The notes under the pieces are model-generated. The model was not told where the DNA came from and made no database searches. It saw only the letters and a program-made list of their open reading frames with translations. A DNA stretch of 64,000 nt from positions 75,991-139,990 of IMG/VR virus record IMGVR_UViG_3300042465_007929, one strand, 5' to 3'. Both the position numbers and the translations under genes were made by a program. Of the stretch, positions 37,002 through 51,621 are shown piece by piece; within the stretch, counting starts at the first letter, position 1, and every line of letters starts with the position of its first letter. This DNA is from a virus.

Positions 37002-37334
37002 ACATATATTTATACACTATTATTTTTATTTTTTTGAAATTCAACGGAAGAGTTTTTTTGATTTTTTTTACTTTTTTCAAAATACGGTCCCGTATTTTTT
37101 TTCACTCTACGTTTAGAGCTTTTGTAAATGAATGAATGAGAAAGTGAGAAAACTGTCCCCCCTCCGCTTCTGAAGATCTAACAGTCAAAAAGTTTTGAGT
37201 AATGGGGTGGGTCAGGGTAGGTCATGGGGCTAGCCATAAAGGGGGAGGGGGAGTATCCTGTCAAGCACAAAAATAAATCATTTTTTATGCAGAAAGTTCT
37301 TGTATGGCCGCACGTTTTTCTTTATGCTTTGGGC

Positions 37335-37481
37335 ATGAGCAACACCGCTACACAATATCAGTTCGCAATCTACAACGGCGAAACCGTCCTCATCCTTGAG
37401 CAATTCGGAATGAATGCTTGGGTTTCTTTCAACGAAGGGGAAGAGATGGAAGTCTCAATGTTCGACCTCTGCCTTATCTGA
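37335..37481 (+). CDS. Small early protein (48 aa)
   Basis: Start reassigned to the ATG 6 nt after the TATGCT -10 box (TTGTAT at 37300). Confidence 0.65.
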   Translation: MSNTATQYQFAIYNGETVLILEQFGMNAWVSFNEGEEMEVSMFDLCLI

Positions 37482-37534
37482 AATAAACGAAAATAAACCT
37501 TGCGGTTCTACCCCGCATTTACTACATTATCCCC

Positions 37535-37693
37535 ATGCAAGACACTACTGCCCAACTCCTCGCTGACCTCGCTGCCGTTACCGCTCGCTTTGAAGCTCTC
37601 GCGCAACGCACGGGCGAGAACGCGCAAGCGTTCATCGAAGGTCTGAAAGATGACAAAAAAAACCTTGAGAACATGAAAAAAGTTCTTGCCTAA
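37535..37693 (+). CDS. Small early protein (52 aa, MQDTTAQLLADL...)
   Basis: Own promoter TTGCGG-N17-TACATT at 37500; below the ORF-track cutoff. Confidence 0.65.
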   Translation: MQDTTAQLLADLAAVTARFEALAQRTGENAQAFIEGLKDDKKNLENMKKVLA

Positions 37694-37720
37694 GCTCTCC
37701 CAATTCACTACACTACGCAC

Positions 37721-37993
37721 ATGACCACTTCAGCTCTTCCCTTCCCAATCGGCACTCTCACGACGCAAGGCATCTTTATCGGTATGCAAGGCAAGCTCGC
37801 ACGGTTTGAAAAGAATATCGGCACACGCACTAGCCCTTGCCTTTGCTCTCCTAAGCTCGCCCAAGTCATCACGCAAGAACAAGAAGACGCTCGCCTTGCT
37901 GCCGAGGACGCTTGCCGCACTCGTGGCTTCTGGGGTAACGCTACTGTCTTGCGCGGTGACGCTGCCCTTGCTGCCCTCGCTACCCTCGCCTAA
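37721..37993 (+). CDS. Small early protein
   Basis: Own promoter TTGCCT-N17-TACACT at 37686. Confidence 0.65.
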   Translation: MTTSALPFPIGTLTTQGIFIGMQGKLARFEKNIGTRTSPCLCSPKLAQVITQEQEDARLAAEDACRTRGFWGNATVLRGDAALAALATLA

Positions 37994-38011
37994 CCTCTAC
38001 ACACTACACAC

Positions 38012-38248
38012 ATGAAACAACCATTGACCAATAGAGAGAAAGCCACGCGCCTAGTGAATCGAGCCGTCAAGCTCTTGAGTGATAACGCCGTATGCCTTAG
38101 CGACCTAGCCGATACCTTTGATCTATGCGCTGGACTAGATGAACTAGAGGAGATGATGGCAGATAGATCTATCCCTATGTGCGACCTGCAAGACACCGCG
38201 CAAGACATAGCTTCCCAACTACTAGAAGAAGAAGGCTTCCCAGTCTAA
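38012..38248 (+). CDS. Small acidic early protein
   Basis: 78 aa, D/E-rich C-terminal half. Confidence 0.6.
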   Translation: MKQPLTNREKATRLVNRAVKLLSDNAVCLSDLADTFDLCAGLDELEEMMADRSIPMCDLQDTAQDIASQLLEEEGFPV

Positions 38249-38260
38249 CACCCAACACTT

Positions 38261-38467
38261 ATGCACCTAACGCAAGACAACCTCGAAACTCTATCACACA
38301 TGGGCTTTCCTATGTATAGCGGATGTCGCAATGAAGCCGTCGCCTATGCAATAGAAGAGATGGGTATCTCACTAGATGAGATACTAGGCAAGCTATCAGA
38401 TGACACCGTTCTAACAGCTATCTTCCAAAGCATACAAGTTATGGGTTTGATGCCATACAAGGATTAG
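38261..38467 (+). CDS. Small early protein
   Basis: 68-aa ORF in the same run. Confidence 0.55.
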   Translation: MHLTQDNLETLSHMGFPMYSGCRNEAVAYAIEEMGISLDEILGKLSDDTVLTAIFQSIQVMGLMPYKD

Positions 38468-38542
38468 TATAAATCAAATGTATAGTATAACTCCTCCCCC
38501 ATGTGGGGGCGGGGTATCTGTGCGCCTCATGTAACCGCCTCT

Positions 38543-38619
38543 GTAAGTCGCTGAATATCAACGAGTTACGGCGGCAGAGCCGCCCCGCCTCCATAAGTCG
38601 TTGATAATCAAGCAGTTAT
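38543..38619. repeat. 77-bp paired-palindrome element, copy 1
   Basis: gtaagtcgctgaatatcaacgagttac + 23-bp GC core + ataagtcgttgataatcaagcagttat. Confidence 0.95.
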
Positions 38620-38744
38620 GAAGGGAGAAAGATCATGCCCCGAAAGCTTTGTCAAGAAAAAAGTGCAGAAAAAATGAGAAAAAAAAGATGAAAAAGATCA
38701 AAAAAGATCTTGCGACAATCGGGCTTTTCAGTTACTCTCTGGGC

Positions 38745-39074
38745 ATGGAAACACTCCTTACCACTACCGCCCCAAACCTGAAAGCCGCTTATACCGCTGT
38801 CCCTCTTGAGACAACAACAAAAACAACAGAAGGAAAAGTTGTTACTTGCTACTACGCAAAAGAACAAATCGTTTGCGACTATGGCTACAATCAAATAACA
38901 ACCTACGAAATTGGCGACAGAATCAATGGTGAGTATCGCAAAGATGGACTTGTCCAAGCTGATACTTACGGTTGCCTCACGACTAAAACAATCCCTTGGG
39001 AAAAGATCGTTACCCGCGAATATATCACGGTGCGCGAATACAAAACCACCACTTGGGAAATTCTCGATAAATAA
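38745..39074 (+). CDS. Early protein (109 aa)
   Basis: Start METLLTTT, 6 nt after TACTCT (TTGCGA at 38710). Confidence 0.65.
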   Translation: METLLTTTAPNLKAAYTAVPLETTTKTTEGKVVTCYYAKEQIVCDYGYNQITTYEIGDRINGEYRKDGLVQADTYGCLTTKTIPWEKIVTREYITVREYKTTTWEILDK

Positions 39075-39122
39075 ACGAAAAAAGATCTTGCTACCTGCTA
39101 AAAATTAACCTAGAATCTGCTC

Positions 39123-39311
39123 ATGACTGAAACACTACTTACCACTACTGAATTGCTCGACCTCGCTTGGAACCTCTACGACATCGTGGAAAACAAAGGC
39201 AATCATCTTCTCGAAAGTCTTTTGATTGATGTTGAAAAAGAACACGGCGAAAAAGTCCGTAGTCAAATTGAATACCTCTTGGAAGTCGAATGCAACATTC
39301 AAGACATGTAA
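39123..39311 (+). CDS. Small early protein
   Basis: Promoter TTGCTA-N17-TAGAAT at 39088; N-terminus ETLLTTT shared with 38745. Confidence 0.65.
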   Translation: MTETLLTTTELLDLAWNLYDIVENKGNHLLESLLIDVEKEHGEKVRSQIEYLLEVECNIQDM

Positions 39312-39365
39312 AAAAAGATCAAAAAAGATCTTGCTATAAGCTCGAAACTGAACTAAAATAACGCC

Positions 39366-39509
39366 ATGACCACCCAATACAACGAAATGTTCGCCAAGTT
39401 CCAAAACGGCCAAATCACCGAAAAAGTCTGGTTCGACTTCTGCTTCGAAACACTGAGCCAGATCATGGAGGATAACAAGGACGTTTTTGTTCGCTTGAAA
39501 AATTGCTAA
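39366..39509 (+). CDS. Small early protein (47 aa, MTTQYNEMFAKF...)
   Basis: Promoter TTGCTA-N17-TAAAAT at 39331. Confidence 0.6.
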   Translation: MTTQYNEMFAKFQNGQITEKVWFDFCFETLSQIMEDNKDVFVRLKNC

Positions 39510-39518
39510 TGTCAAGGA

Positions 39519-39548
39519 AAATCTTCCCGAAAGGGGAGGTTTTTTTAT
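39519..39548 (+). terminator. Intrinsic terminator
   Basis: ATCTTCCC-GAAA-GGGGAGGT followed by a T-tract. Confidence 0.75.
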
Positions 39549-39604
39549 GCAAAAATCTGAAAATAAATCTTGACTGGGGCAAAAATGCCTGAAAATAAAA
39601 AGTC

Positions 39605-39681
39605 ATAAGTCGCTAATACTCAATGAGTTATGGCGGCGGGGCGGCAGCGCCGCTGTAAGTCGTTGATAATCAATGACTTAT
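39605..39681. repeat. 77-bp paired-palindrome element, copy 2
   Basis: ataagtcgctaatactcaatgagttat + ggcggcggggcggcagcgccgct + gtaagtcgttgataatcaatgacttat. Confidence 0.95.
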
Positions 39682-39796
39682 GCAAGTACTAGGTGCGCCG
39701 TAGTTAGGATCTGTCAAGCGAAAAAGTGAAAAAAATAAATAAAAAAAACACAAAAAAGATCTTGCGCGGGGTCGATTCTTTCGCTATACTTTGGGC

Positions 39797-39904
39797 ATGC
39801 GAGGGAGTGAACGCCCTTTCAGAAAAGGACTCTCGGAGCTGGCTAGGTTGCTGAGGATAAAGTCGGGGTAAGATCCCCCAAATCGTGCCACTGCTTTTCT
39901 GAAA
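39797..39904 (+). ncRNA. Candidate structured small RNA (alternatively a 24-aa peptide gene, 39797-39871)
   Basis: Strong promoter TTGCGC-N17-TATACT at 39762. A perfect 11-bp stem (39817-39827/39894-39904) encloses smaller hairpins. Confidence 0.35.
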
Positions 39905-39946
39905 AAACTTCTTGCACTACCTCTCAAAATTAACTACTCTTTGCAC

Positions 39947-40096
39947 ATGGAAAACTATAAAGGATTCAAATTCGACTACGATCAAGGCTTCATCACTTTC
40001 TATCATCCAGACATGGAAGAGGGGAATGGAGATTGGAGCGGTTCCGCTTCCTGCATGGAAGATGCAATGGAAATCATCGACGAAATGACTTTCTAA
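39947..40096 (+). CDS. Small acidic early protein (49 aa, MENYKGFKFDY...)
   Basis: Promoter TTGCAC-N17-TACTCT at 39912. Confidence 0.6.
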   Translation: MENYKGFKFDYDQGFITFYHPDMEEGNGDWSGSASCMEDAMEIIDEMTF

Positions 40097-40151
40097 GATA
40101 AAATCTAAAAAAGATCTTGCCATAGGTAAAAAAACAAACTAAAATTTCGCC

Positions 40152-40346
40152 ATGACCTTGGAAGACCAAATCACCCGCAACTCGAAAGAGTGCCTCGACT
40201 ATCTCGCATTCTCAAACTACGAATTCAATCGGATTCTCAACCCTGAGATTTCCCCTCAACGCTGGGGGCTTGTATACGGCGCGGAGCTTGTCGAGAAAAT
40301 GGAAGCGGCATTCCAAGCAAAAAAAATGTTGACAATAGACGTTTAA
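40152..40346 (+). CDS. Small early protein
   Basis: Promoter TTGCCA-N17-TAAAAT at 40117. Confidence 0.65.
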   Translation: MTLEDQITRNSKECLDYLAFSNYEFNRILNPEISPQRWGLVYGAELVEKMEAAFQAKKMLTIDV

Positions 40347-40366
40347 AATTCTAAACTTTCCCCGAC

Positions 40367-40540
40367 ATGAAAAACGCAATCCTCGAAAGTCTCTTCCTGC
40401 TTCTCTGCTCTATCCTCTGCGGTGGATTCCTCTTTCTCATCGAATGCCCCGCTTGGCTTCAAAATGGTTTCTTTGCAATGATGGTTGCACCTGCTCTCTG
40501 GTTCATTCCTCAAAGAATTTTGAGCGAGATGAAAAAATAA
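40367..40540 (+). CDS. Small two-helix membrane protein (57 aa)
   Basis: MKNAILESLFLLLCSILCGGFLFLIE...EMKK; promoter TTGACA-N17-TAAACT at 40329. Confidence 0.6.
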   Translation: MKNAILESLFLLLCSILCGGFLFLIECPAWLQNGFFAMMVAPALWFIPQRILSEMKK

Positions 40541-40579
40541 GTTGACCAACTCCGAAAAATTCGTTACTCTTTCCCCGAC

Positions 40580-40762
40580 ATGAAAACCGCTACATTCCAA
40601 ATCACTGTTCACTTCCCGAAGGCTAAATGCTATGACACATTCCTGATTGATGCCTCTGGCATTCGCTGGGCAATCGAAAATGGATCAAAAGCTGTCCAGA
40701 TGAAATATCCATCCATGATTGAAAAAGCAGATTTTGAGATCGTAACAGCAGAAAAAGTTTGA
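40580..40762 (+). CDS. Small early protein
   Basis: Promoter TTGACC-N17-TACTCT at 40542. Confidence 0.65.
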   Translation: MKTATFQITVHFPKAKCYDTFLIDASGIRWAIENGSKAVQMKYPSMIEKADFEIVTAEKV

Positions 40763-40809
40763 CACCTGCAAAAAAATCCTTTATTCTCACCTCGCAACCA
40801 ATAAATAAC

Positions 40810-41064
40810 ATGACACTGACCTATAATACCCCATCCGCTAAAATTGCATCCGATCTTGTCGGAAAGACCGTTCGCTATCTCTCGAACAAATCCAAGACAA
40901 CTCCTTCGGGTGTTCGCGTTTTCAAAATTGAAAGCGTGGAAAATGTTGACTTCGCCGCCAAGACTGGCAAGCGTTATGTAACCGTCCTTGCAAAGGACAT
41001 CGACGACGCAGGAACGCCCAAGTATCGCAACTTGCACCTTGCAGGAATCGACTTGATCGTCTGA
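40810..41064 (+). CDS. Small basic early protein (84 aa)
   Basis: Start MTLTYNTP after promoter TTGACA-N17-TATTCT at 40759. Confidence 0.65.
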   Translation: MTLTYNTPSAKIASDLVGKTVRYLSNKSKTTPSGVRVFKIESVENVDFAAKTGKRYVTVLAKDIDDAGTPKYRNLHLAGIDLIV

Positions 41065-41135
41065 AGAAAAAAAGTCCTAAGCAAGACGAAAAAAGGCTTG
41101 ACTCAAACCTATAAAAAATTCTAAACTCTCCCGAC

Positions 41136-41300
41136 ATGAAAAACATTATCCTTACTGCTCTGTTCTCCGCTTCTCACATTCTCATCTTCATGGTTGCCCG
41201 TGAATATCTGAACATGAAGGGCGAGCTAAACTTTCTTGTGTTCTGGTCAATGCTTGGCGTGACATGGGCCGCAGCGATTCGCGCTGAGTTGAAAAAATAA
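41136..41300 (+). CDS. Small two-helix membrane protein (54 aa), similar in plan to 40367
   Basis: MKNIILTALF...ELKK; promoter TTGACT-N18-TAAACT at 41098. Confidence 0.6.
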   Translation: MKNIILTALFSASHILIFMVAREYLNMKGELNFLVFWSMLGVTWAAAIRAELKK

Positions 41301-41323
41301 TTTCTGGTATAGTGTGTTAGGGG

Positions 41324-41364
41324 GGCTGGTTTCTGCGTAGTGGCGGAAACCAGCTTTCCTGTTT
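41324..41364 (+). terminator. Probable terminator hairpin
   Basis: GCTGGTTTCTGC...GCGGAAACCAGC followed by TTTCCTGTTT. Confidence 0.6.
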
Positions 41365-41424
41365 ATGAAAAAATAATTAAAAAAAGTCTTGACAACCTGC
41401 CAGCGCGTCTGAAATAAAAAAGTC

Positions 41425-41501
41425 ATAAGTCGCTAAGTATCAACGAGTTACAGAGGCGGGGCCGCAGCGTCGCCGTAAGTCGTTAATAATCAACGAGTTA
41501 C
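41425..41501. repeat. 77-bp paired-palindrome element, copy 3
   Basis: ataagtcgctaagtatcaacgagttac + 23 bp + gtaagtcgttaataatcaacgagttac. Confidence 0.95.
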
Positions 41502-41589
41502 GACATGTCAAGCAAAATAATAAAAAAATAATTAAAAAAAACATCAAAAAGTTCTTGTCATGGGGTCAGATCTTCTTTATTCTCTGGGC

Positions 41590-41928
41590 ATGAGCTTGCT
41601 CCCATTCCCATCCGATTCCGCCGACTACGAAGAATATTGCTCCGTCATGGAGGCGATGGCTGACGAGGCCGAAGCGTCCGCGCCTGATCCTGAGCCTGTG
41701 CATTCCGATGCTCGTTACACCGATGCCGAACTCTACCCCGAATCCCAGTATGGGGGCGATGGCCCTTGGAATGCCGACGAGGAGTCGGATGAGCTTCGCG
41801 CCCGTGAGGATGCCGACTACTATGCCTCCATGCACGAGTGCGAGAATGAACCAGAGGATCGCTACCTTGACTCCCAATGGGAGGATGCCAATGAGTACGG
41901 CATGGAGGGATGCTGCGGAGATTTTTGA
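41590..41928 (+). CDS. Extremely acidic 112-aa protein (candidate DNA mimic)
   Basis: By hand count 34 D/E, 4 R and 0 K. Promoter TTGTCA-N17-TATTCT at 41555. Only gene between elements 3 and 4. Confidence 0.65.
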   Translation: MSLLPFPSDSADYEEYCSVMEAMADEAEASAPDPEPVHSDARYTDAELYPESQYGGDGPWNADEESDELRAREDADYYASMHECENEPEDRYLDSQWEDANEYGMEGCCGDF

Positions 41929-41946
41929 AAAAAAGTCTTGACACGC

Positions 41947-42023
41947 CTAACTCGTTGAATATCAGCGAGTTACGGCGGCGGGGCGGCGCAGCCCCCATAA
42001 GTCGTTGATAATGAGTGACTTAC
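41947..42023. repeat. 77-bp paired-palindrome element, copy 4 (third degenerate palindrome at 42039-42065)
   Basis: ctaactcgttgaatatcagcgagttac + 23 bp + ataagtcgttgataatgagtgacttac. Confidence 0.95.
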
Positions 42024-42069
42024 AGAGATTTTGTTTTCCTAACTCATTGATGCTTAATGTGTTATCTCC

Positions 42070-42191
42070 TATTTGTGGCATAATAATTTGCAGCCTATTT
42101 GGGCTATAAAAATTTGCAGCCTATTTGTCAAGAAAAAAATCACAGCCTGTTAGGAATTTATTTTCATATTTAAGCAATAAAAGATTGCAGC
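42070..42191. repeat. Four direct repeats of TATTTR.-N9-.(A/T)T(C/T)(A/G)CAG, three at 26-bp period
   Basis: Copies start at 42070, 42096, 42122 and 42167. Confidence 0.75.
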
Positions 42192-42222
42192 CTAAAAGAG
42201 TTTCTGTCATTCTCTCCTTGCC

Positions 42223-42417
42223 ATGACATTTAAAGAACTCCTAGAATTAGAATCCTCATTCGACTCCTGCTTTAACGAACTGGTTTATCAGTTGAAACAA
42301 AAAGGAATGGATCGTGAATACTATGCACTACTCACAGAAAAATATCGGTCGTTGTCTGCTCAAATTGGCACACAATTAGATTTGATTTCTCTTGACGAAC
42401 AACCATTGAAAGACTAA
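42223..42417 (+). CDS. Small early protein
   Basis: Promoter TTGCAG-N17-CATTCT at 42185. Confidence 0.6.
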   Translation: MTFKELLELESSFDSCFNELVYQLKQKGMDREYYALLTEKYRSLSAQIGTQLDLISLDEQPLKD

Positions 42418-42429
42418 CCTATCCCTGCC

Positions 42430-42594
42430 ATGAAAACATTCATTAGCTCCGTTACAATCAACATCGAAATCCAAGCAGAGAATCTAATCGACGCTGAAGA
42501 GAAATTCTTTGAAATGGATTTCGCCATCACTCATCCCGACGGTCAAGAAGCCGATTGGACTTTTATCGAACAAGAAATGGAAGAAAAATACTAA
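42430..42594 (+). CDS. Small acidic early protein (54 aa, MKTFISSVTINIE...)
   Basis: Promoter TTGACG-N17-TAACCT at 42392. Confidence 0.6.
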   Translation: MKTFISSVTINIEIQAENLIDAEEKFFEMDFAITHPDGQEADWTFIEQEMEEKY

Positions 42595-42595
42595 T

Positions 42596-42748
42596 ATGAA
42601 ACTACTAAAGAAAATCTACAACAGGATCAATCCTCCACCACCATCAATCTATGGCAAGAACATCTTTGTTCAAAAAAGTTGGTTGACAAAACAGATGGAA
42701 GATGCTGTGTTCAATCAAGCAAAGAATCAAATCTATCAACTCCGATAA
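42596..42748 (+). CDS. Small protein (50 aa)
   Basis: ATG immediately after the previous stop codon. Confidence 0.5.
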   Translation: MKLLKKIYNRINPPPPSIYGKNIFVQKSWLTKQMEDAVFNQAKNQIYQLR

Positions 42749-42752
42749 TGTT

Positions 42753-42974
42753 ATGTACCTCGCAACTCTTATCCATAATCAATCTCTTGGCTGCATTTTC
42801 ATGTGTGACACTTTTGAAAAGGCACTCACAAAGGCTCATTCAATCGCTGTCAATACTCTTGATCGGGATCTGCTTGAAAATGAACTCTTTGATCTCGAAG
42901 AAACTGGAGAGATTTTCGTTGAATATGATGACGACAATCAATACACTTTCTGCGTGGCACTAATTGAAGACTAA
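42753..42974 (+). CDS. Small acidic protein (73 aa)
   Basis: Start MYLATLIH, 4 nt after the previous stop. Confidence 0.55.
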   Translation: MYLATLIHNQSLGCIFMCDTFEKALTKAHSIAVNTLDRDLLENELFDLEETGEIFVEYDDDNQYTFCVALIED

Positions 42975-42987
42975 ATAAAAAAATAAT

Positions 42988-43185
42988 ATGAAAAAAGATA
43001 ATACACTGAAGCGTTGGTTGAAACTTGGATGGTCTGCTAGCTGGACTGAGCGTGAAGACAAAGCGCACAAGGCAGGCATTCTCCTCGGAGTTAAGCAGGG
43101 TCTTGAAATGGCTCGACAAAAGGAAAATAATCGTAAGCGATTGAGTTATCAAAAAAAACTTGCAAACAAGTTGACTAGCGTTTAA
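42988..43185 (+). CDS. Small basic protein
   Basis: 65-aa ORF in the operon. Confidence 0.55.
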   Translation: MKKDNTLKRWLKLGWSASWTEREDKAHKAGILLGVKQGLEMARQKENNRKRLSYQKKLANKLTSV

Positions 43186-43194
43186 TCTTCGCCC

Positions 43195-43521
43195 ATGTCA
43201 GTAAATCCTCAAGAGGCGACACTCTATTGTCGTATGGAACTCAAAAGCTATGGCTTAAAAGATCATTCCATTGTGTGGCGCGAATGGTCACACACTCTTG
43301 GGGAAGCATGGCCCTCTAATAAAGAAATACATCTTAGCTTTAGATGTTTAAAAAATAAAGAATTGCTGATCGAAATCATAAAACATGAAATCGCTCATGT
43401 GTTAGACCATAAAGAACGTGGAACATTTTTGCGTAATGGTCGCAATGACTTTCACGGCGCAAACTGGAAAAAATGGTGCAAGGTTGTTGGCGTAAGACCT
43501 AGAAGGTTTATCCCTGTATAA
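43195..43521 (+). CDS. SprT-like zinc metalloprotease
   Basis: LG.A......I.LS, HEIAH and HGANWKKWC..VG SprT motifs. Its stop codon is the TAA that begins element 5. Confidence 0.8.
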   Translation: MSVNPQEATLYCRMELKSYGLKDHSIVWREWSHTLGEAWPSNKEIHLSFRCLKNKELLIEIIKHEIAHVLDHKERGTFLRNGRNDFHGANWKKWCKVVGVRPRRFIPV

Positions 43522-43594
43522 GTCGTTGATTATCAACGAGTTGCGGGGGCGCGGGGGCAGAGCCGCCATAAGTCGTTGATTCTTAGCGAGTTAT
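43518..43594. repeat. 77-bp paired-palindrome element, copy 5
   Basis: ataagtcgttgattatcaacgagttgc + 23 bp + ataagtcgttgattcttagcgagttat. Confidence 0.95.
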
Positions 43595-43700
43595 AAACAA
43601 TTAATTTCTTAGCCCCAAAAGCTTGTCAAGCAAAAAAGAATTTTATTTTTTATCAAATAGTTCTTGCAGGTATGGGGCATTCTGTTATTCTTTGGTCGCA

Positions 43701-44015
43701 ATGAACGAACCCTACGAACACTATCTAACTAACGGAGTCGATCTTCGTATTCCGCTCCATGCTCGCGCATACCTTAAAGCAGCAAGCCATTATCTTTCCA
43801 GTTGGCCGCAAGATTGGAGTGCAGAGCGTCTTTCCCTTGCTATCATGGCAGACGAAGATGAACCAGAAAGCCAAGCATTGAAAGACCGTAAAGAAGTTAA
43901 AGTTTGGGAGGCTCTAGACAGAGTTTGGGAGAATCTAGAAACAACGGAAGACGCTGGGCTTTATGTTGAAACAATGATTGCTAATCTTGCAGAAGACTTT
44001 ATCCTTTTCAAATAA
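43701..44015 (+). CDS. Early protein (104 aa)
   Basis: Start MNEPYEHY after TTGCAG-N16-TATTCT at 43664. Confidence 0.6.
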   Translation: MNEPYEHYLTNGVDLRIPLHARAYLKAASHYLSSWPQDWSAERLSLAIMADEDEPESQALKDRKEVKVWEALDRVWENLETTEDAGLYVETMIANLAEDFILFK

Positions 44016-44016
44016 G

Positions 44017-44235
44017 ATGAAAAACACTTTAGAAAAACTCAACGAAGTAAAAACATTTCTCAATACTTTGCTTGACAGCTCAAACGAAGAAGCGATAGAC
44101 TTGCTCGTCAACTATGGCGAAGACATCGAAGAAACATTACAAAAAGCCATTAACCAAATAATCTTATCAAAAACAAATGATCTCTGTATACCTACAAAAC
44201 AAAACATATTCGACCTTGATTGCAAAATTTGCTGA
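44017..44235 (+). CDS. Small protein
   Basis: ATG right after the previous stop; overlaps the next ORF. Confidence 0.45.
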   Translation: MKNTLEKLNEVKTFLNTLLDSSNEEAIDLLVNYGEDIEETLQKAINQIILSKTNDLCIPTKQNIFDLDCKIC

Positions 44236-44338
44236 TGACGAAATCTATCAGCTTTGCTTTCCTACTTTACAAAAAGAAGCTAGCACATATGGTTGGATCA
44301 TCACCGAAACGAAAGACGAGAACCCCTTAGAAGATTAA
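44177..44338 (+). CDS. Small protein (53 aa, MISVYLQNK...)
   Basis: Read manually; fills a gap in the operon. Confidence 0.45.
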   Translation: MISVYLQNKTYSTLIAKFADDEIYQLCFPTLQKEASTYGWIITETKDENPLED

Positions 44339-44342
44339 AAGC

Positions 44343-44510
44343 ATGAAACATTTAGTATTTACAGTTACAAACGGCTTTGTAGAATTTCGCATGGGCGGAC
44401 GCATGGGGAGTCATCCCCTTGGGGACGATTCGCCAGATTGGGTTATCGACTACTTAATCAAAATAATCAATCCAGACACACATGAAATCATACGATCCAA
44501 AACGAATTAA
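44343..44510 (+). CDS. Small protein (55 aa, MKHLVFTV...)
   Basis: Read manually; ATG 4 nt after the previous stop. Confidence 0.45.
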   Translation: MKHLVFTVTNGFVEFRMGGRMGSHPLGDDSPDWVIDYLIKIINPDTHEIIRSKTN

Positions 44511-44670
44511 AGTAAAGGCAACAGTTATCATTGACATGGAAATCAATGACGGCTATACCCTTGAGGAAGCAATCGACAATCTTGTAGTCAATATGCACTG
44601 CAATCATACAGATTCTGCTTATGTGTTTGATAGTGAATTAACCTCTTACCAACCCCTATATCAATTATGA
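44482..44670 (+). CDS. Small protein
   Basis: 62-aa ORF in the operon. Confidence 0.5.
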   Translation: MKSYDPKRIKVKATVIIDMEINDGYTLEEAIDNLVVNMHCNHTDSAYVFDSELTSYQPLYQL

Positions 44671-44843
44671 CTGAAGAAATGCAATATGTAATCAATAGCC
44701 CTTATACAAGCTATTGGTTGAGGAATGCAATCCAAGAATGTCTTGCGCGTGATGCGCTGGATGCAAGAGCAGATGCAAAACTATTGTTTAATCTTTTAAA
44801 CGATAGGCTGAACGAAATGCTTGACAAACATAAATCTGTTTGA
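44667..44843 (+). CDS. Small protein (58 aa; SYWLRNAI..CL.RDA.DA.ADA motif)
   Basis: ATGA overlap with the previous gene; read manually. Confidence 0.55.
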   Translation: MTEEMQYVINSPYTSYWLRNAIQECLARDALDARADAKLLFNLLNDRLNEMLDKHKSV

Positions 44844-44855
44844 TTCTCTTCCCCT

Positions 44856-44932
44856 GTAAGTCGTTGAAACTCAGCGACTTATGGCGGCGGGGCGGCAGCG
44901 CCGTTGTAACTCGTTGATAATGAGTGAGTTAC
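44856..44932. repeat. 77-bp paired-palindrome element, copy 6
   Basis: gtaagtcgttgaaactcagcgacttat + ggcggcggggcggcagcgccgtt + gtaactcgttgataatgagtgagttac. Confidence 0.95.
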
Positions 44933-45078
44933 GCAAGTACTAAGACAGTAGTAGTTGGCGGGTGTCAAGCGAAAAAGAAAAAAGAATTTTCAGAAAAGAT
45001 CAAAAAAGATGTTGCAGTCCCACTCATAACGGGTTAATCTTTCCCCGTCTCCAGTAAACAACTAAACCAATAAAAAAT

Positions 45079-45819
45079 ATGTCACTTATCATCTCAAGCA
45101 ACAAAGTATCCGCCGAACAACTCGCCAGCGTCTTCACGCCAGCGAAAACTGATTCGCATCAGCCAATCGCTCACTCTGTCCTTGTCGATATGACCCGCGA
45201 AGCTCTCGACCGTGTTGGCTTGCAAATCCGCGAGGAAGAGCATGGTCTTGCCAATGGCGGCTTGAACTACTTTGGTGGCTTTGCCCTCAAAGGTTCCGAC
45301 ATCTATTCGGCGGAACGTGAAATCGTTCTTGGTCTTCGCAATTCAAACAATAAGCGTTTCGCTGCTTCGATCTGCCTTGGCAATCGCATGATGGTTTGCG
45401 AAAACCTTTGCTTCTCGTCTGACGTGAAGCTGTCCCGCACTCATACAACGCACATCATGCGCGATCTTCCGCGCATCATTGCCGATGCCATGAGCCGCGT
45501 TGTCACTTCATGGAATGACATGGAACAACGCATCGAAAGCTACAAGAACACCGAAATTTCCAGCCGCCGCGCTGAAAACATTGTTGTTGACTTGGCCGAT
45601 TCAAAGGCTTTGCCAATCCGTGAAATTTACAACACCATTCAGGAATTTCGCAACCCTCGCCATGAGGATTTCAAGGGCGGAACCTTGTGGAGTCTTTACA
45701 ACGCCGTGACTGAAAACCTCAAAGGTTCTTGCTTTACCAAACTGCCACAGCGCACGATGGTAACGCAAAGCATCTTTGATCGTATCGCAAAGCCAGCTCA
45801 AATTTTGGTCGAGGTCTGA
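45079..45819 (+). CDS. DUF932-family protein
   Basis: TP..T.SH.PI.H, LGLRNS, G.R..VCENL.F, RTHT and TLWSLYNAVTE motifs; only gene between elements 6 and 7. Confidence 0.75.
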   Translation: MSLIISSNKVSAEQLASVFTPAKTDSHQPIAHSVLVDMTREALDRVGLQIREEEHGLANGGLNYFGGFALKGSDIYSAEREIVLGLRNSNNKRFAASICLGNRMMVCENLCFSSDVKLSRTHTTHIMRDLPRIIADAMSRVVTSWNDMEQRIESYKNTEISSRRAENIVVDLADSKALPIREIYNTIQEFRNPRHEDFKGGTLWSLYNAVTENLKGSCFTKLPQRTMVTQSIFDRIAKPAQILVEV

Positions 45820-45832
45820 TCCGTATGCCGCG

Positions 45833-45861
45833 AGCCTCGCCCCGAAAGGGGCGGGGTTTTT
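45833..45861 (+). terminator. Intrinsic terminator
   Basis: AGCCTCGCCCC-GAAA-GGGGCGGGGTTTTT. Confidence 0.8.
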
Positions 45862-45888
45862 CGCGTTGTCAAGAAAAAACTTTCAGTC

Positions 45889-45965
45889 ATAACTCACTAA
45901 GTATCAAGGAGTTACGGGGGCGCGGGGGCCGCGCTGTCCTAAGTCGTTGATAATCAACGAGTTAC
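45889..45965. repeat. 77-bp paired-palindrome element, copy 7
   Basis: ataactcactaagtatcaaggagttac + 23 bp + ctaagtcgttgataatcaacgagttac. Confidence 0.95.
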
Positions 45966-46071
45966 GCTGTCAACAAAAAACATAAAAAATCTCCTGTCAA
46001 GTAAAATAAAATAAAAAATAAATGCAGAAAAGTCTTGTGCATCTCTCGCGTTTTGCTAACCTGTGGGCCAC

Positions 46072-46779
46072 ATGAACTTGCTCAACTCTGGAAACTCCAA
46101 AACTCGTAAAGGTGAAAAAAAAGGCTGGACGACGTTCGGCATTCACCTAGCTCCCGCCTCTCTGTCTGGTTTCAATGTTTGCGACTCGTCAAGTGCGGGT
46201 TGCCGTTGGGCTTGCCTCAACACTTCGGGGCGTGGCGCAATGTCTTCCGTGCAACGCGCACGAATTGCAAAAACAAAATTGTTCTTTACTGACAAGCGGC
46301 TTTTCATGTCGATGCTCTTCAAAGAAATCACAGCAGGAATTAAGAAATCCGCAAAGACTGGAATGCGTCCTTGTTTCCGTCTCAATCTGACTTCTGATCT
46401 GCCTTGGGAAAAAATAAAGTTCGATGGATGCACTGTCATGGAAGCATTCCCAAACGTGCAATTTTACGATTATTGCAAGTCACCAGAACGCATGACTAAA
46501 TTTCTGGCGGGTGAAATGCCAGCAAACTATCACTTGACCTTTTCCCGCAGTGAAGAGAATGGCGATGTTGCTTTGGCTTTCCTCAAGTCTGGCGGCAATG
46601 TTGCAATGGTCTTTCGTAATTCTCTCCCCTCTTCTTACTTTGGCCATGAGGTAATCGACGGAGACGAAACCGATTTGCGCTTCCTCGACGGTTCGGGCAA
46701 GATCATTGGTCTGAAAGAAAAGGGTCTTGCTAAAAAAGACTCGACAGGCTTTGTCCTCGAACCTACACTTGCATCATGA
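46072..46779 (+). CDS. GP88-like protein with a Cys cluster
   Basis: C.SSSAGC..ACL..SGRG, RLN.TSD..WE, VQFYDY.K, NYHLTFS and DGD.TDLRFLD motifs. Start MNLLNSG after promoter 46035. Confidence 0.65.
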   Translation: MNLLNSGNSKTRKGEKKGWTTFGIHLAPASLSGFNVCDSSSAGCRWACLNTSGRGAMSSVQRARIAKTKLFFTDKRLFMSMLFKEITAGIKKSAKTGMRPCFRLNLTSDLPWEKIKFDGCTVMEAFPNVQFYDYCKSPERMTKFLAGEMPANYHLTFSRSEENGDVALAFLKSGGNVAMVFRNSLPSSYFGHEVIDGDETDLRFLDGSGKIIGLKEKGLAKKDSTGFVLEPTLAS

Positions 46780-46882
46780 AGCCTTGGCAATACCTGATTC
46801 TGTTTTTTACTTTTCTGATTCTCGCTTTCCATCGAGACAGAAAAAACATCTTCAAGCGTGAACTTAACCCAGAAAATTTTGA

Positions 46883-47080
46883 ATGAACCTTTTTCAATTC
46901 ATCGAAGATGTTGATGCTGGCAAGTTCTTTGTTTCTGCCGTGCATGATGGTTGCAGCGTAACAAACATTGCGATTTATCCCATAGTTGATTCTTTAGTAT
47001 ATCCTGCGCTACTCATGGACTTGCATTCGATGCAGCCTCTGATTGATATGGTAGAGGATAAACTTGCGGAAGTTGCATGA
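46883..47080 (+). CDS. Small protein
   Basis: 65 aa; preceded by a 36-aa hydrophobic ORF (46776-46886) with ATGA overlaps. Confidence 0.5.
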   Translation: MNLFQFIEDVDAGKFFVSAVHDGCSVTNIAIYPIVDSLVYPALLMDLHSMQPLIDMVEDKLAEVA

Positions 47081-47091
47081 GATAAAATTGT

Positions 47092-47117
47092 CCACCTCGC
47101 AAGAGGTGGCTTTTTTG
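47092..47117 (+). terminator. Intrinsic terminator
   Basis: CCACCTC-GCAA-GAGGTGG-CTTTTTT. Confidence 0.8.
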
Positions 47118-47174
47118 TGAAAATTTCTTAAAATAATTCTTGACAAGCGAAAAAAGTTCTGAAAATAAAAAGTC

Positions 47175-47251
47175 ATAAGTGACTCATTATCAACGAGTTA
47201 GGGAGGCGGGGCCGGGACGCGCCCGTAAGTCCTTTAGTATCAGTGAGTTAT
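47175..47251. repeat. 77-bp paired-palindrome element, copy 8
   Basis: ataagtgactcattatcaacgagttag + 23 bp + gtaagtcctttagtatcagtgagttat. Confidence 0.93.
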
Positions 47252-47316
47252 AAAAGAAAAAAAATAATAAAAAACTTGTTGACGTTGTGAGCTGACTGGG
47301 TTAATCTCTCCCCGTC

Positions 47317-47610
47317 ATGAAAAAACTATTCTTTGAATACACGCTTGCTGCCTTTCCAATCTACGACGAAGGAAAGAAACTCTTTTCAGAAGTCATCGTC
47401 GAAGACGATATGGATGACGATTGCATTCTTGAAACCATCTTTGCTTGGTGCAATAATGGATCGCGCAGAGAATGTCAAGCATTTCTTGATTCAAATCTTC
47501 GCTCTCTTTCCGTCGGTGATTATGTTACTATTGGCACTTGCTTTTCCGACGCTCGCAAGTATCGTTGTGAATCGCAGGGCTGGACTCACTTCCTTGCAAG
47601 ACTCCACTAA
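47317..47610 (+). CDS. Early protein (RSLSVGD motif)
   Basis: Promoter TTGACG-N17-TAATCT at 47279. Confidence 0.65.
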   Translation: MKKLFFEYTLAAFPIYDEGKKLFSEVIVEDDMDDDCILETIFAWCNNGSRRECQAFLDSNLRSLSVGDYVTIGTCFSDARKYRCESQGWTHFLARLH

Positions 47611-47614
47611 TACC

Positions 47615-47992
47615 ATGAAACAAATCCAAGTATACTACAACTTCCGCAAAAAGCTTTTCTCCGTTCAAGAGAAGATCAATGGCAAGTGGAAGGTCGTTGA
47701 ACACACAAACGAAATCTTTATCCGTAATGCCACGTTCAAGGTGAGCGAGGCAGGGCGGCAAAGAGTAATCAAGGAGAAGCGCAAAAATGTTCATGCAAAG
47801 ATCGTGGGTGAGCGTTTCCCATTCATCCCCAAGTCTTTTGTCTACCGCGACGAAGTTTCTTACAACCCTTACAAGGGACCAAACTTTATGGTAGTATCAG
47901 AACAAAAACCTCTTGACTGGGCAAAATATGTCACTATTCTCAACGGCAAGGTGATCGCACTGATCCCCGAATTCAAAGGAACAAGAATCTAA
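47615..47992 (+). CDS. Conserved phage hypothetical protein (GRQRV..EKRKNVHA...YNPYK motif)
   Basis: Start reassigned to MKQIQVYYN. Confidence 0.65.
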   Translation: MKQIQVYYNFRKKLFSVQEKINGKWKVVEHTNEIFIRNATFKVSEAGRQRVIKEKRKNVHAKIVGERFPFIPKSFVYRDEVSYNPYKGPNFMVVSEQKPLDWAKYVTILNGKVIALIPEFKGTRI

Positions 47993-48003
47993 CAACTAAA
48001 ACT

Positions 48004-48351
48004 ATGGGCCTCGATCAATACGCAAAAGTTCGCAATCCAAAAACGCAAGAAATGGAGGAGTTCCACTACTGGCGCAAACATAACGCTCTGCATGGGTGGA
48101 TGGAAAATCTCTGGAAGTCCAAGGGTAATACTGGCGAGTTCAACTGCGAACCAGTCCAGCTTTCCCATGCCGATCTTGATTCACTCAAGAAGGATCTTAT
48201 GGCAAGCAGCTTGCCAGAGACAAAAGGATTCTTTTTCGGTTCTGATAGCAACCTCGACGATTCGCGTCTGATGGATGACCTTCACTTCATCGCACAAGCA
48301 AAAGAACATCTTGACGTAGGGATGGAAGTCGCCTACGATTCTTGGTGGTAA
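48004..48351 (+). CDS. Conserved phage hypothetical protein (MGLDQY...YWRKHN.LHGW...GFFFG...YDSWW)
   Basis: Recognisable motif set of a widespread phage family of unknown function. Confidence 0.7.
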   Translation: MGLDQYAKVRNPKTQEMEEFHYWRKHNALHGWMENLWKSKGNTGEFNCEPVQLSHADLDSLKKDLMASSLPETKGFFFGSDSNLDDSRLMDDLHFIAQAKEHLDVGMEVAYDSWW

Positions 48352-48376
48352 GATAAATCTCCAACAAACAAACACT

Positions 48377-48643
48377 ATGATACAAATTGCACAAAAAATG
48401 ACAATGTGGGAAGAGTTCAATATCGAAGACGATATGCAAGAATCTCTTTTGAGCTATCTCAAAGACTTTCCCAACGCCGATTATAATGACCTTTATAACT
48501 GGGCTTGTGACAATGGTTGCGATCCAGAGTCTCACACTCTGGAAGGAACCGAAGAAGTTCTAACGCCAGAAGATAATGGTGGGCAATCTACTCTTGAAAT
48601 CACCGCATTCCCAAACAATAAAATCATTTTTCAAAACGCATGA
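48377..48643 (+). CDS. Small acidic protein
   Basis: 88 aa, D/E-rich. Confidence 0.6.
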   Translation: MIQIAQKMTMWEEFNIEDDMQESLLSYLKDFPNADYNDLYNWACDNGCDPESHTLEGTEEVLTPEDNGGQSTLEITAFPNNKIIFQNA

Positions 48644-48810
48644 ACCACATTGACTTTATCATGGCCTACGAAGGTGGGGAAATCACAACAGAAGAAGAAT
48701 TGATCGCTGGCTTTCAAGCTATGATCGACGACGGCTCTGTCTGGGAACTTCAAGGGTTCTATGGGCGAACTGCTCGCGGCTTGATTGATTGTGGCGATTG
48801 CCACGCATAA
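48640..48810 (+). CDS. Small conserved phage protein (IMAYE.GE...FQ..ID.G..W.LQG.YGR.A)
   Basis: 56 aa, ATGA overlap; read manually. Confidence 0.65.
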   Translation: MNHIDFIMAYEGGEITTEEELIAGFQAMIDDGSVWELQGFYGRTARGLIDCGDCHA

Positions 48811-48823
48811 AAGCTTGACTCTC

Positions 48824-48900
48824 CTAACTCGTTGGTTATCAGCGAGTTATGGAGGCGCGGCCCCCTCTTCGTCATAACTCTTTGATTATCAGTGACTTAT
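48824..48900. repeat. 77-bp paired-palindrome element, copy 9 (third degenerate palindrome at 48909-48935)
   Basis: ctaactcgttggttatcagcgagttat + 23 bp + ataactctttgattatcagtgacttat. Confidence 0.93.
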
Positions 48901-49203
48901 GTCAATTCATAAGTTGTTGATGCTTAGTGTGTTATGTATAGTATTGTTTATTTAGATCATGGGTATTCACAGGTAGAAAAGAGTAGGGTAGCGTTGACGA
49001 ACTCATCCGCCGACGCTACCCTTGCAGCATCACCATTGCCGCTTTACGTTAGTGAAAATTTGTTTATTTAGGTTCGTTTTATTCACAGGGAAAAATGGTA
49101 GGGAGTTTATGAACTGAGGAAAACTAATGAAACCTCCTCCCTACCATTCTCACATTAAACCCAACGAAGCACCCCTGCATGTTGAGAAAGTTTAGAAAAT
49201 GTT

Positions 49204-49280
49204 TGGTGATTCAGACAGAACTCGAATCTGTAACCTACACATTAGAAGTGTGTTGCTCTATCCAATTGAGCTACTGAACC
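49204..49280 (-). tRNA. tRNA-Arg(TCT)
   Basis: GGTTCAG-TAGCTCAATTGGATAGAGCA-ACACA-CTTCTAA-TGTGT-AGGTT-ACAGA-TTCGAGT-TCTGT-CTGAATC-ACCA cloverleaf with encoded CCA. Confidence 0.93.
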
Positions 49281-49341
49281 TTTATTTGGTGAATGAGAAA
49301 TCGTAGATGGCTCACTCACTTGTAAATATAATAACGGATCT

Positions 49342-49608
49342 TTAGGCTTTTGTCAATTTAATTTTTGCCATATATTTCGCCCAGCTTCCTCCGTTATATT
49401 TGATTGCTGGTTCATCTAGATATTGGGTAGCTGCATCAAGCATAGCCTGAGCATAAAAGTATTTAGCTTCCCAGTAATTGGATGTCTTACCTTCGCGCCA
49501 TGCTCCTACACGTTCATCATATTGACGAATCTTAAAGTAGTGACCACGATTTTCAATCTCGACATTTTCCTTGGCATGTCGCACTGCTGCTGCTTTAGTT
49601 ATCTTCAT
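49342..49608 (-). CDS. Hypothetical protein
   Basis: 88-aa ORF in the RuvB operon. Confidence 0.6.
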   Translation of the reverse strand: MKITKAAAVRHAKENVEIENRGHYFKIRQYDERVGAWREGKTSNYWEAKYFYAQAMLDAATQYLDEPAIKYNGGSWAKYMAKIKLTKA

Positions 49609-50026
49609 CTTGTTTTTCGGTATAGATACTTCCTAGTGAATAGGTTTGAGAGTGATTAGAAATGTTTTGCATGAAGTTCTCCATGTTGACATTATTTGAC
49701 ATTATTTCATTTGCGGTACGAATCGCAGCCTTAGTGAGTTTTAAAACAGATGCTTTAATCATTGTGACTTTTTCTTCTGCTTCATTTGTTTTATAGTGAT
49801 TAACTGATGCCCAGTATTTATCCCACTCATTGTAGTATGCTCTCATAGTAAGAAGTTGTTTGAGCTTCTTGATGTTGGGCATATAGATTAGATGAGTGAA
49901 GTAATCGTCTGAGTGATTAGTGTTATACAGGTTCTCAGATAGAATAGCAAGACATTCTGCTTCTTCTTTGTTACCTACTAGCCCCACGGCAATACCCGCG
50001 CCATTATTTGAAACAATATAATTCAT
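49595..50026 (-). CDS. Hypothetical protein (143 aa)
   Basis: Start reassigned to MNYIVSNN, just after the RuvB stop. Confidence 0.55.
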   Translation of the reverse strand: MNYIVSNNGAGIAVGLVGNKEEAECLAILSENLYNTNHSDDYFTHLIYMPNIKKLKQLLTMRAYYNEWDKYWASVNHYKTNEAEEKVTMIKASVLKLTKAAIRTANEIMSNNVNMENFMQNISNHSQTYSLGSIYTEKQDEDN

Positions 50027-50030
50027 AGTA

Positions 50031-50939
50031 TTAGTTGGAAAGGATTGTGTTAAGTGCTTGAATGCCGAGTGGAGTGATGTGCCGAGTACGTTCGATCTTG
50101 ATGAATCCCATACGGAGCAAATGCATTTCAACATCTTTCTGAATGCTGGTAGGTGATAAACCTGTGGCTGCTGCTAGCATATTCAAAGTACATTCGCCGC
50201 GATCTTTAAGAATAGAAAGAACTTCTACTTCGCTATTAGTCAAACCATATGGTTTAATATTGACCAAGCTGCAAAGATCAATCCAATGATTGCGGCCAAA
50301 TTGACTGATGTTATTTGATTCGCAATACATTTCAATTTCTTTTGATCTCTTAACAGCACTACGGGCATTACCGCGAAGTGTTAGCGCAATGTCATCAATC
50401 AATCCGTCTTCGAATGTTGTCCAGTGCAAACGCTTCTGAAGAATTTCGCCTAGCTCTTGATTCTTATATGGTTTAAAATCAATAATGGTTAGACGATCTT
50501 TGAATGGGGCAAACAATTTATCCTGCTCAGTAGTAGCGAAGATATAAGTCTGACGCTGGAAATTAAATTCAAAACTATTTTCGCGCCATTCAAAATGTTT
50601 CTTTGTTGCTCCCTCTACATTAAACACAGTAAGGAATGCCATCACAAGATCCTTTGGCAAAGCATGTGCTTCATCAAACAAAATAGTAATATCATTATCC
50701 ATGATGACTGGCATGAAGATCTGCTCAAAGAATTGGGCGCTGTTTTTAATTGTAGAACAATTGATTTCCAGCAATGGTTTGCCCAGATTCTTAGCGAACT
50801 CTTTTGCGAACTCTGTCTTACCCAAACCCTTCGCCCCATTGAGCATAAGGAATGGAGTAAGCCCACTAACTGAATAAGCTTTATGATAAAAGCCCAGTTG
50901 CTTCTTGATATGATCTTGACCGATGAGTGATTCAAACAT
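50031..50939 (-). CDS. ruvB: RuvB-like Holliday junction branch-migration AAA+ ATPase
   Basis: LIGQ..IK, GAKGLGKT, ILFDEAH, IFATT...L..PF.DR, RGNAR and C-terminal winged-helix (VE.HLL..GFI...R.R.IT..G) motifs. Confidence 0.85.
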   Translation of the reverse strand: MFESLIGQDHIKKQLGFYHKAYSVSGLTPFLMLNGAKGLGKTEFAKEFAKNLGKPLLEINCSTIKNSAQFFEQIFMPVIMDNDITILFDEAHALPKDLVMAFLTVFNVEGATKKHFEWRENSFEFNFQRQTYIFATTEQDKLFAPFKDRLTIIDFKPYKNQELGEILQKRLHWTTFEDGLIDDIALTLRGNARSAVKRSKEIEMYCESNNISQFGRNHWIDLCSLVNIKPYGLTNSEVEVLSILKDRGECTLNMLAAATGLSPTSIQKDVEMHLLRMGFIKIERTRHITPLGIQALNTILSN

Positions 50940-51206: not shown

Positions 51207-51621
51207 AGGCGCAAAGAGTAACCACACAGAACCGACCCGTCAATAACTTTTTTCAAACTTTCTGAAAAAAATAATTCTCCAAATTAAAAATTAATTAATT
51301 AAAATTCCTGAGATTACACGAAATCTTTTGAGAATTCATTATTTGGCGCGAAAACATTCACAGGCAAAATCATTATTTGGCAAAAACTAATTCACAGATG
51401 AAATCTCCTGTGTAATAGATGATGTCTAAGTGATTTGTATTCACTATAATCAATTACTACTACATCATTACTGTTTAATGTTTAATCATTCTACTTGTTA
51501 AGGGAAAACCCGCACAACATCGCTGATACTGGAGAGATCTGTAAGGCTGAAACAAGAAAAAAGAAAAAACAAAAAACAGATTTTAAAAGAAGCGATCTAT
51601 TCCTTCTCTTTTTTCGTGCCT

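Follow-up and report, generated by a model that had tools for sequence, protein, structure and literature searches.

Why should the early genes of an uncultured phage be set apart by nine copies of one paired palindrome, and what would bind there? The question is raised by the last 64 kb of a 139,990-bp IMG/VR virus record (IMGVR_UViG_3300042465_007929, rated complete by CheckV), a stretch of 64,000 nucleotides that we call the window and to which all positions refer. A repeat search found a single family of nine copies at window positions 38544-48899, with the starts and spacings first listed in an initial annotation of this DNA, and each copy is a 75-bp element in which two 25-bp palindromes flank a GC-rich core. 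The explanation that we favor, with a probability of roughly 0.45, is that these are paired U-turn sites for a host protein of the integration host factor (IHF)/HU type, which would act as boundary and promoter-architecture elements between early transcription units.

Geometry, position and spread of the elements

Searching the window with the palindrome pattern TAASTCNNTNANNNTNANNGASTTA at up to two mismatches gave 20 matches, against 0.10 expected from shuffled sequence. Eighteen of them are arranged as nine pairs, with exactly 50 bp from the start of one palindrome to the start of its partner, and the other two are solitary (42040 and 48910). The repeat and pattern searches thus agree with the initial annotation on the number of copies, their starts and a distance of 50 bp between centers in nine of nine. 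Its palindromes of 27 bp and element of 77 bp are shortened here to 25 and 75 bp, with the pairing around a GC core retained, and its statement that none occur elsewhere in the window stands for pairs, the two solitary palindromes having been missed. In the whole 139,990-bp genome, no copies were found elsewhere at up to one mismatch. All nine elements are intergenic, and the modules are built as described at the outset, with the element followed by an A-tract, a promoter, small genes and in some cases a terminator.

38544-38618: element 1; palindromes at 38544-38568 and 38594-38618, GC core at 38569-38593; three half-sites match the IHF consensus WATCARNNNNTTR exactly
39606-39680: element 2; two palindromes and core; intrinsic terminator upstream at 39523-39539
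41426-41500: element 3
41948-42022: element 4
42040-42064: solitary palindrome past element 4, one mismatch
43519-43593: element 5; the TAA that opens palindrome 1 is, as first noted, the stop codon of the SprT-like gene at 43195-43521
44857-44931: element 6
45890-45964: element 7, between the DUF932 gene and the GP88-like gene; terminator-like hairpin with a T-run upstream at about 45838-45861
47176-47250: element 8; intrinsic terminator upstream at 47092-47109
48825-48899: element 9, the last of the array
48910-48934: solitary palindrome past element 9, two mismatches

An exact scan of IMG/VR with the single-palindrome pattern returned at least 117 stretches, and among the matches listed we assembled a family sample of 208 non-identical pairs (three mismatches or fewer) from 71 loci of related uncultured phage contigs. 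Start-to-start spacing over these pairs runs from 41 to 60 bp with a mode of 50 bp (111 pairs), followed by 58 bp (17), 48 bp (15), 52 bp (12), 41 bp (11), 51 bp (10), 53 bp (8) and 42 bp (7); relatives that depart from 50 bp use 41, 42, 48, 49, 51, 52, 53, 57 or 58 bp. Spacing is uniform per locus, being identical in 23 of the 34 loci with at least three pairs, and most loci with mixed spacing are an artefact of a third palindrome. The spacing that had been called fixed is therefore constant per genome and not across the family, in which other lineages lie at 41-58 bp. Comparing spacer length among relatives, a check proposed with the initial annotation, shows conservation within lineages and none across them, so a single universal three-dimensional geometry is unsupported.

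In three other long records the copies are likewise confined to one block of 7-12 kb each. The element block adjoins, and diverges from, a conserved block of PhoH, sigma-like, nuclease, terminase and portal genes, and we therefore regard it as the early arm of one large uncultured phage family. Beyond these relatives, the paired pattern occurred in 1 of 185,579 species genomes, and because this single match is a 139-kb phage-like contig in a Saccharibacteria bin, the element is phage-specific. Cultured phages lack it, as judged by blastn of one element against 50,697 records. The scan of the full genome, related contigs and candidate hosts that had been recommended thus finds a family widespread in relatives and present once in species genomes.

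Between the palindromes, the core is 65-94% GC without conserved sequence. It tends to be G-rich and then C-rich whichever strand is read (55 versus 13), and this trend is a dyad-symmetric property. Core identity is 71% within loci, 53% between loci and 44% for shuffled sequence; given the higher identity within loci, the copies in one genome are related by duplication or gene conversion.

Double-stranded constraint and the IHF consensus

The extended consensus of the family is CG-TAASTCGTTGATWATCAACGASTTA-CG. Over the 208 pairs, the Watson-Crick fraction at every variable position equals the product of the column frequencies, both within a palindrome and between palindromes 1 and 2. At position 4/22 it is 0.47 observed versus 0.45 expected within palindrome 1, and 0.47 versus 0.46 between the two palindromes, while at position 8/18 observation and expectation coincide (0.64 and 0.64). 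G.G and C.C oppositions at position 4/22 are as frequent as G-C, and RNAalifold found no compensatory change among 20 pairs in the nine window copies. A closing stem between the outer flanks was also considered and is unsupported, with no pairing covariation at -1 to -4. Because the variable positions do not covary in a Watson-Crick manner, the elements are better understood as protein sites on double-stranded DNA than as selected hairpins, and the same conclusion, drawn initially from non-compensatory mismatches, is upheld on 208 pairs. What is constrained is double-stranded DNA, each half-site by itself; a position at which G and C are equally frequent and A or T never occurs would fit a minor-groove or shape read-out.

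Each palindrome reads YAA-N4-TTGAT-W-ATCAA-N4-TTR, which is the IHF consensus on both halves, the consensus WATCARNNNNTTR being that of E. coli. The window holds 32 exact matches to it, of which 21 fall in the 36 half-sites of the 18 paired palindromes, leaving 11 for the other ~62 kb, fewer than the 16.6 that chance would give over the whole window. The 13-nt consensus runs exactly from the palindrome center (W) to the last base (TTA), placing TTA at +10 to +12 from the W center, in register with the dimer dyad. Positions left unforced agree with the consensus as well (C16 84%, R18 99% and W13 82% in a matrix of 416 palindromes). In the IHF-H' complex, two kinks 9 bp apart enclose WATCAR, and TTR is part of the flank, with its center T at position 44 (bioRxiv 10.1101/382655); the site as a whole measures 35 bp and is bent by 160 degrees. 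From this kink and TTR geometry, the pseudo-dyad would fall on or at most 1 bp from W, a position good to ±1 bp. Judged by its sequence, each palindrome is best taken for a single dyad-symmetric IHF-type site whose two halves are in register, and not for two sites that overlap. The operators of FNR/CRP (TTGAT-N4-ATCAA), Fur, P22 c2 and LacI-type regulators were compared too, and their spacing does not fit.

As for the binder, the half-site consensus TAAsTCnTTGA is identical in every spacing class, and no HU/IHF gene (PF00216) was found in this phage or in two relatives; a host factor is therefore the simplest candidate. WhiB is likewise absent from the phage genome.

Early promoters, proposed role and alternatives

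Canonical terminators lie upstream of elements 2, 7 and 8, and an A-tract with a sigma70-type promoter follows every element except element 9. Across the early block (37300-48340) we count about 22 promoters, these among them, of the form TTGnnn-N16-18-TAnnnT with an ATG 5-9 nt later, a gap so short that most early genes would be translated from leaderless mRNAs. Distances from the palindrome dyad to the outward promoter show a suggestive 10.5-bp periodicity (n = 94, nR^2 = 6.6, related copies not being independent). Across the family, 77 of 410 flanks have a TTGAC box that points the other way, inward, at a distance of 31-35 nt from the palindrome, and a single element is often flanked by such boxes left and right. 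Their layout is an A/T-rich UP-like stretch, the box, 16 nt, TA, then purines and an A-run. Measured from the nearest dyad, the hexamer centers lie at ~46-49 bp, which is similar to the distance between two dyads, and by their sequence the boxes look like promoters with a predicted start ~4 nt before the palindrome.

39762-39799, plus strand: outward promoter, an example (TTGCGC-N17-TATACT-N6-ATG, leaderless mRNA)
Starts at 38710, 41555, 43664, 46035 and 47279: further outward promoters following elements
39570-39575, plus strand: inward TTGACT box left of element 2
41389-41394 (element 3), 44821-44826 (element 6) and 47140-47145 (element 8): equivalent left boxes
41938-41943 (element 4) and 48815-48820 (element 9): close-set left boxes
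39712-39717, minus strand: inward TTGACA box right of element 2 (TGTCAA on the plus strand)
38650-38655 (element 1), 43624-43629 (element 5), 44963-44968 (element 6) and 45995-46000 (element 7): equivalent right boxes
41506-41511 (element 3): close-set right box

Three direct repeats of ~31 nt are present at 42067-42194, right behind element 4 with its third palindrome, and the intergenic region around 51.3 kb contains two 34-nt repeats (51333-51400). Both sets could be iterons or regulator sites.

In the explanation that we favor, a dimer of the host's IHF/HU family would bind each 25-bp palindrome and bend the DNA into a U-turn, giving two such sites at a lineage-fixed spacing (50 bp here) around a stiff GC core that would resist melting. 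The unit follows the end or terminator of the preceding module and precedes the A-tract and promoter from which the next gene would be transcribed as a leaderless mRNA, and there the pair could isolate neighboring, strongly transcribed units, either as a topological boundary or as a roadblock to read-through and antisense transcription, and could shape the upstream DNA of the next promoter. Protein on the palindrome would also occlude the inward boxes, since with a start ~4 nt before the palindrome it would sit inside the RNA polymerase footprint and block them. In a modeling study, IHF pins plectonemes and can split DNA into topological domains (PMC9519438), and repetitive extragenic palindrome (REP) and bacterial interspersed mosaic element (BIME) sequences, to which IHF and gyrase bind, have a proposed role as topological insulators (PMC3333891). 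By analogy, the mechanism would resemble that proposed for these IHF- and gyrase-binding BIME elements. The initial annotation's proposal of an unannotated cis-acting system is supported, and the architectural role that it offered as one option is the most plausible, although not in the form of a single universal geometry.

Several observations weigh against this explanation. Common descent or gene conversion partly accounts for the uniform spacing within a genome, and the spacing differences between lineages (41/42, 48-53 and 57/58 bp) are not whole helical turns, so that no single dihedral geometry is conserved. The N4 positions, which canonical IHF sites leave free, are conserved here as CGAS at 57-93% (the search pattern partly forced G20 and A21, but the window copies, which are free of that bias, conserve both as well), and at the A of ATCAA only about 45% of sequences have A. 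The explanation leaves the inward boxes without a clear role, and they have no T at -7 of a proper -10 hexamer. Finally, the sole genome match is to a Saccharibacteria bin with a single HU gene, and the 200 relatives of that bin are without phage, with no phage terminase in any of them.

The most probable alternative, though in our view still an unlikely one, is that the palindromes are operators of a conserved phage-encoded dimeric regulator of an unknown family, which would sit at about +4 to +29 of the inward promoters and shut off immediate-early transcription. The inward UP-TTGACA-N16-TA boxes at a fixed 31-35 nt would put the palindrome center at about +17, a classic repression geometry; the spacing is lineage-specific yet uniform per genome, as for a co-evolving phage factor; the conserved CGAS exceeds what IHF needs; and bacterial genomes are without the elements. 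However, no helix-turn-helix, ribbon-helix-helix or other DNA-binding domain was found in ~40 early-region and neighboring proteins (Pfam, PHROGs), the half-site is invariant over very divergent lineages while early genes turn over fast, and the in-register fit to the 13-nt IHF consensus would have to be a coincidence. Somewhat less probable again is an element that works as RNA, with a long imperfect hairpin that would terminate or insulate in both directions, be processed by RNase III as between the T7 early genes, or stabilize 5'/3' ends. Most copies do fold as single strands into one long hairpin with z-scores of about -5 to -6.6, far better than shuffles (-4.8 to -6.6 for two well-folding copies on both strands), whereas copy 8 folds poorly (-2.5 and -1.4). 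In a subset of ~35-40%, an A-run occupies -11 to -7 and a T-run +7 to +11, and at one related locus (L119) an element placed directly behind a stop codon has GGGG-T6 after it and no further terminator; moreover, the inward promoters would yield convergent transcripts of ~95 nt. Set against this are the lack of any compensatory change in the 208 pairs, with the G.G and C.C oppositions described above, and the small reach of the T-run, which is limited to that subset and 4-6 nt off the palindrome, while the window copies mostly have no sense-side T-run and three of them are closely preceded by a canonical terminator. Neither a terminator nor an RNase III site requires 25 conserved bases, and the elements have no Rfam match.

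The initial annotation had offered cassette shuffling as its other option, in which the elements would be homologous recombination repeats like those of the promoter early stem-loop (PeSL) cassettes, or sites of an unrecognized recombinase, and would move host-takeover modules. To apply the test set at the outset, we grouped the ORFs from 35 loci by family and asked how their order differs, and the proposal fails it: adjacency in the early region is broken in 55% of comparisons across an element versus 49% without one, and the DUF932-[element]-GP88 arrangement is stable, being retained in 42 of 63 comparisons. The remark that no recombinase gene is visible extends from the window to the complete genome, where we found no tyrosine integrase (PF00589), serine recombinase/resolvase (PF00239) or Y1 transposase (Y1_Tnp). 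With breaks about as frequent away from elements and none of these enzymes, a recombination-site reading is unsupported and we hold it improbable. In its favor, the DUF932 (F2), GP88-like (F4) and L5-gp82-like (F12) modules do vary in order between contigs with elements between them, copies are homogenized within a genome, and genes that overlap in one phage (L083) are split in another (L119) by a 330-bp cassette containing a hairpin, a TTGACA promoter, an element, an A-tract and a leaderless promoter. This difference indicates that whole regulatory cassettes, not the bare element, are gained and lost. Homologous exchange between the repeats may occur as a by-product, as repeats of such length recombine in any recombination-proficient phage, and it would leave the conserved palindromes and GC core unexplained. 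A miniature mobile element spreading in phage early regions, comparable to the Correia elements, would account for dyad-symmetric copies that are numerous, homogenized per genome and variably present between relatives, and IHF sites are common in transposon ends. It is nevertheless very improbable, with no transposase, no target-site duplication in the flanks, an L119/L083 insertion that comprises an entire regulatory cassette and not a 75-bp unit, and copies limited to one block per genome and, among the 185,579 species genomes, to the one phage-like contig.

The IHF/HU explanation can be carried further, into a composite topological insulator, in a form that we consider doubtful. IHF U-turn pairs would fold ~50-bp segments in a zigzag around a GC clamp, maybe a strong gyrase site, and the inward boxes, defective in initiation and ~46-49 bp from each dyad, would dock host RNA polymerase, giving the first-expressed DNA one independent supercoiling and transcription domain per host-takeover module.

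The paired sites would provide a conserved and easily recognized tag for the early (host-takeover, anti-defence) region in a large clade of uncultured phages of 105-180 kb, one that outlasts turnover of the surrounding genes and could be used on metagenomic phage contigs. They would also allow a compact test of how dense and very strong transcription units are organized by nucleoid-bending proteins, promoter-like boxes and GC clamps. Should the binder be IHF itself, a proteobacterial host would be indicated for a phage group currently without one.

Phage context and comparison with known systems

The genome is ~33% GC, versus 41-46% in the element-bearing block (36000-50000), and all relatives show the same rise in their early block (37-49%). 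The phage is long-tailed; its tape-measure protein is 2,471 aa long, and another protein, of 1,889 aa, has Ig-like domains. Its terminase large subunit (TerL) distantly resembles that of SPbeta (YonF), at an identity of just 21-25% to SPbeta-like, Lactococcus 949-like and large C. difficile siphophages, and megablast of the region against the 50,697 cultured phage records gave no cultured relative. The early genes include those for SprT-like, DUF932, mycobacteriophage GP88-like and L5 gp82-like proteins (43195-47992), a set that we take to resemble the anti-defence genes of plasmid leading regions.

27507-28424: ERCC4-type nuclease
29447-30160, minus strand: conserved 237-aa protein
30593-31321: PhoH
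43195-43521: SprT-like ORF
45079-45819: DUF932 gene
46063-46779: GP88-like gene
49204-49280, minus strand: tRNA-Arg(TCT), the sole Rfam match
50031-50939, minus strand: RuvB-like AAA+ protein with a C-terminal winged helix, just past the array

The 237-aa protein, adjoining PhoH and the ERCC4-type nuclease, matches Sigma70_r2 weakly (E = 2.5e-4, short of the curated cut-off) and is a possible phage sigma factor. A TAGTGTA motif stands directly upstream of several late genes (six matches versus 1.6 expected), and the late genes, too, mostly lack Shine-Dalgarno sequences. Runs SRR27420180 and SRR27335563, together with JGI sample 3300042445, contain DNA that matches 42885-47891 at 100% identity (L126-L128), and a contig in JGI sample 3300059473 has an identical DUF932 protein. 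Contigs with the identical DUF932 gene are 100% the same as the window and offer no variation to use. Two of the identical-DNA contigs stop at most 10 nt past the DUF932 stop codon, probably through assembly breaks at the repeats.

The phage-like contig in the Saccharibacteria bin (L123, G003:C1; CAZDRR010000001.1, 138,977 bp) is a related phage with a TerL 52% identical and 13 palindromes at 127.5-138.7 kb, spaced at 57-58. The bin is a 'Candidatus Saccharibacteria' metagenome-assembled genome of 1.1 Mb and ~33% GC, whose relatives measure 0.5-0.8 Mb; the contig is either bin contamination or a hint of the host.

In the literature we found no published account of this element, or of paired palindromic IHF sites in phage early regions. 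Among known systems, the IHF sites themselves (the E. coli consensus, lambda H') share the 13-nt consensus, which fits each palindrome half, and the TTR offset and dyad agree with IHF-H'. Known IHF sites are asymmetric, however, in that one side carries the consensus and the opposite side often an A-tract, whereas here the consensus occupies both halves, N4 is conserved (CGAS) and the sites form fixed pairs around a GC core. The enterobacterial BIME-1/RIP elements (REP, IHF linker, inverted REP) similarly recur between genes as composites of GC-rich palindromic DNA and an IHF site, with proposed roles as terminators, topological insulators and sites of IHF and gyrase binding (PMC3333891). Their order is the inverse of that found here, where two IHF-type sites flank one GC core, and the phage elements have neither a GTAG-type REP nor a REP-associated Y1 transposase and are not in host chromosomes.

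The PeSLs of T4-type phages (PMC2839356, PMC4122927) are also repeated regulatory motifs in a plastic early or hyperplastic region, adjoining AT-rich UP regions and sigma70-type early promoters, with a G-run followed by a C-run and with whole cassettes gained or lost. Unlike the present elements, a PeSL is a promoter with a terminator stem-loop and no conserved paired palindromes, and it marks recombination breakpoints; here a terminator function is unsupported, breakpoints are not enriched at elements and the phage, with its long tail and SPbeta-like terminase, is not T4-like. The RNase III sites of the T7 early genes are quasi-palindromes of ~60-90 nt at early-gene boundaries that form long imperfect hairpins, in contrast to elements with no pairing covariation and strong base-specific conservation. 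Integron attC sites likewise are imperfect palindromes that separate small gene modules (gene cassettes), but here there is no integrase, the modules carry their own promoters and there is no evidence of a folded single-strand site. The ingredients of the element, its IHF-type sites, palindrome-like GC core and early promoter cassettes, are known, and their arrangement is new.

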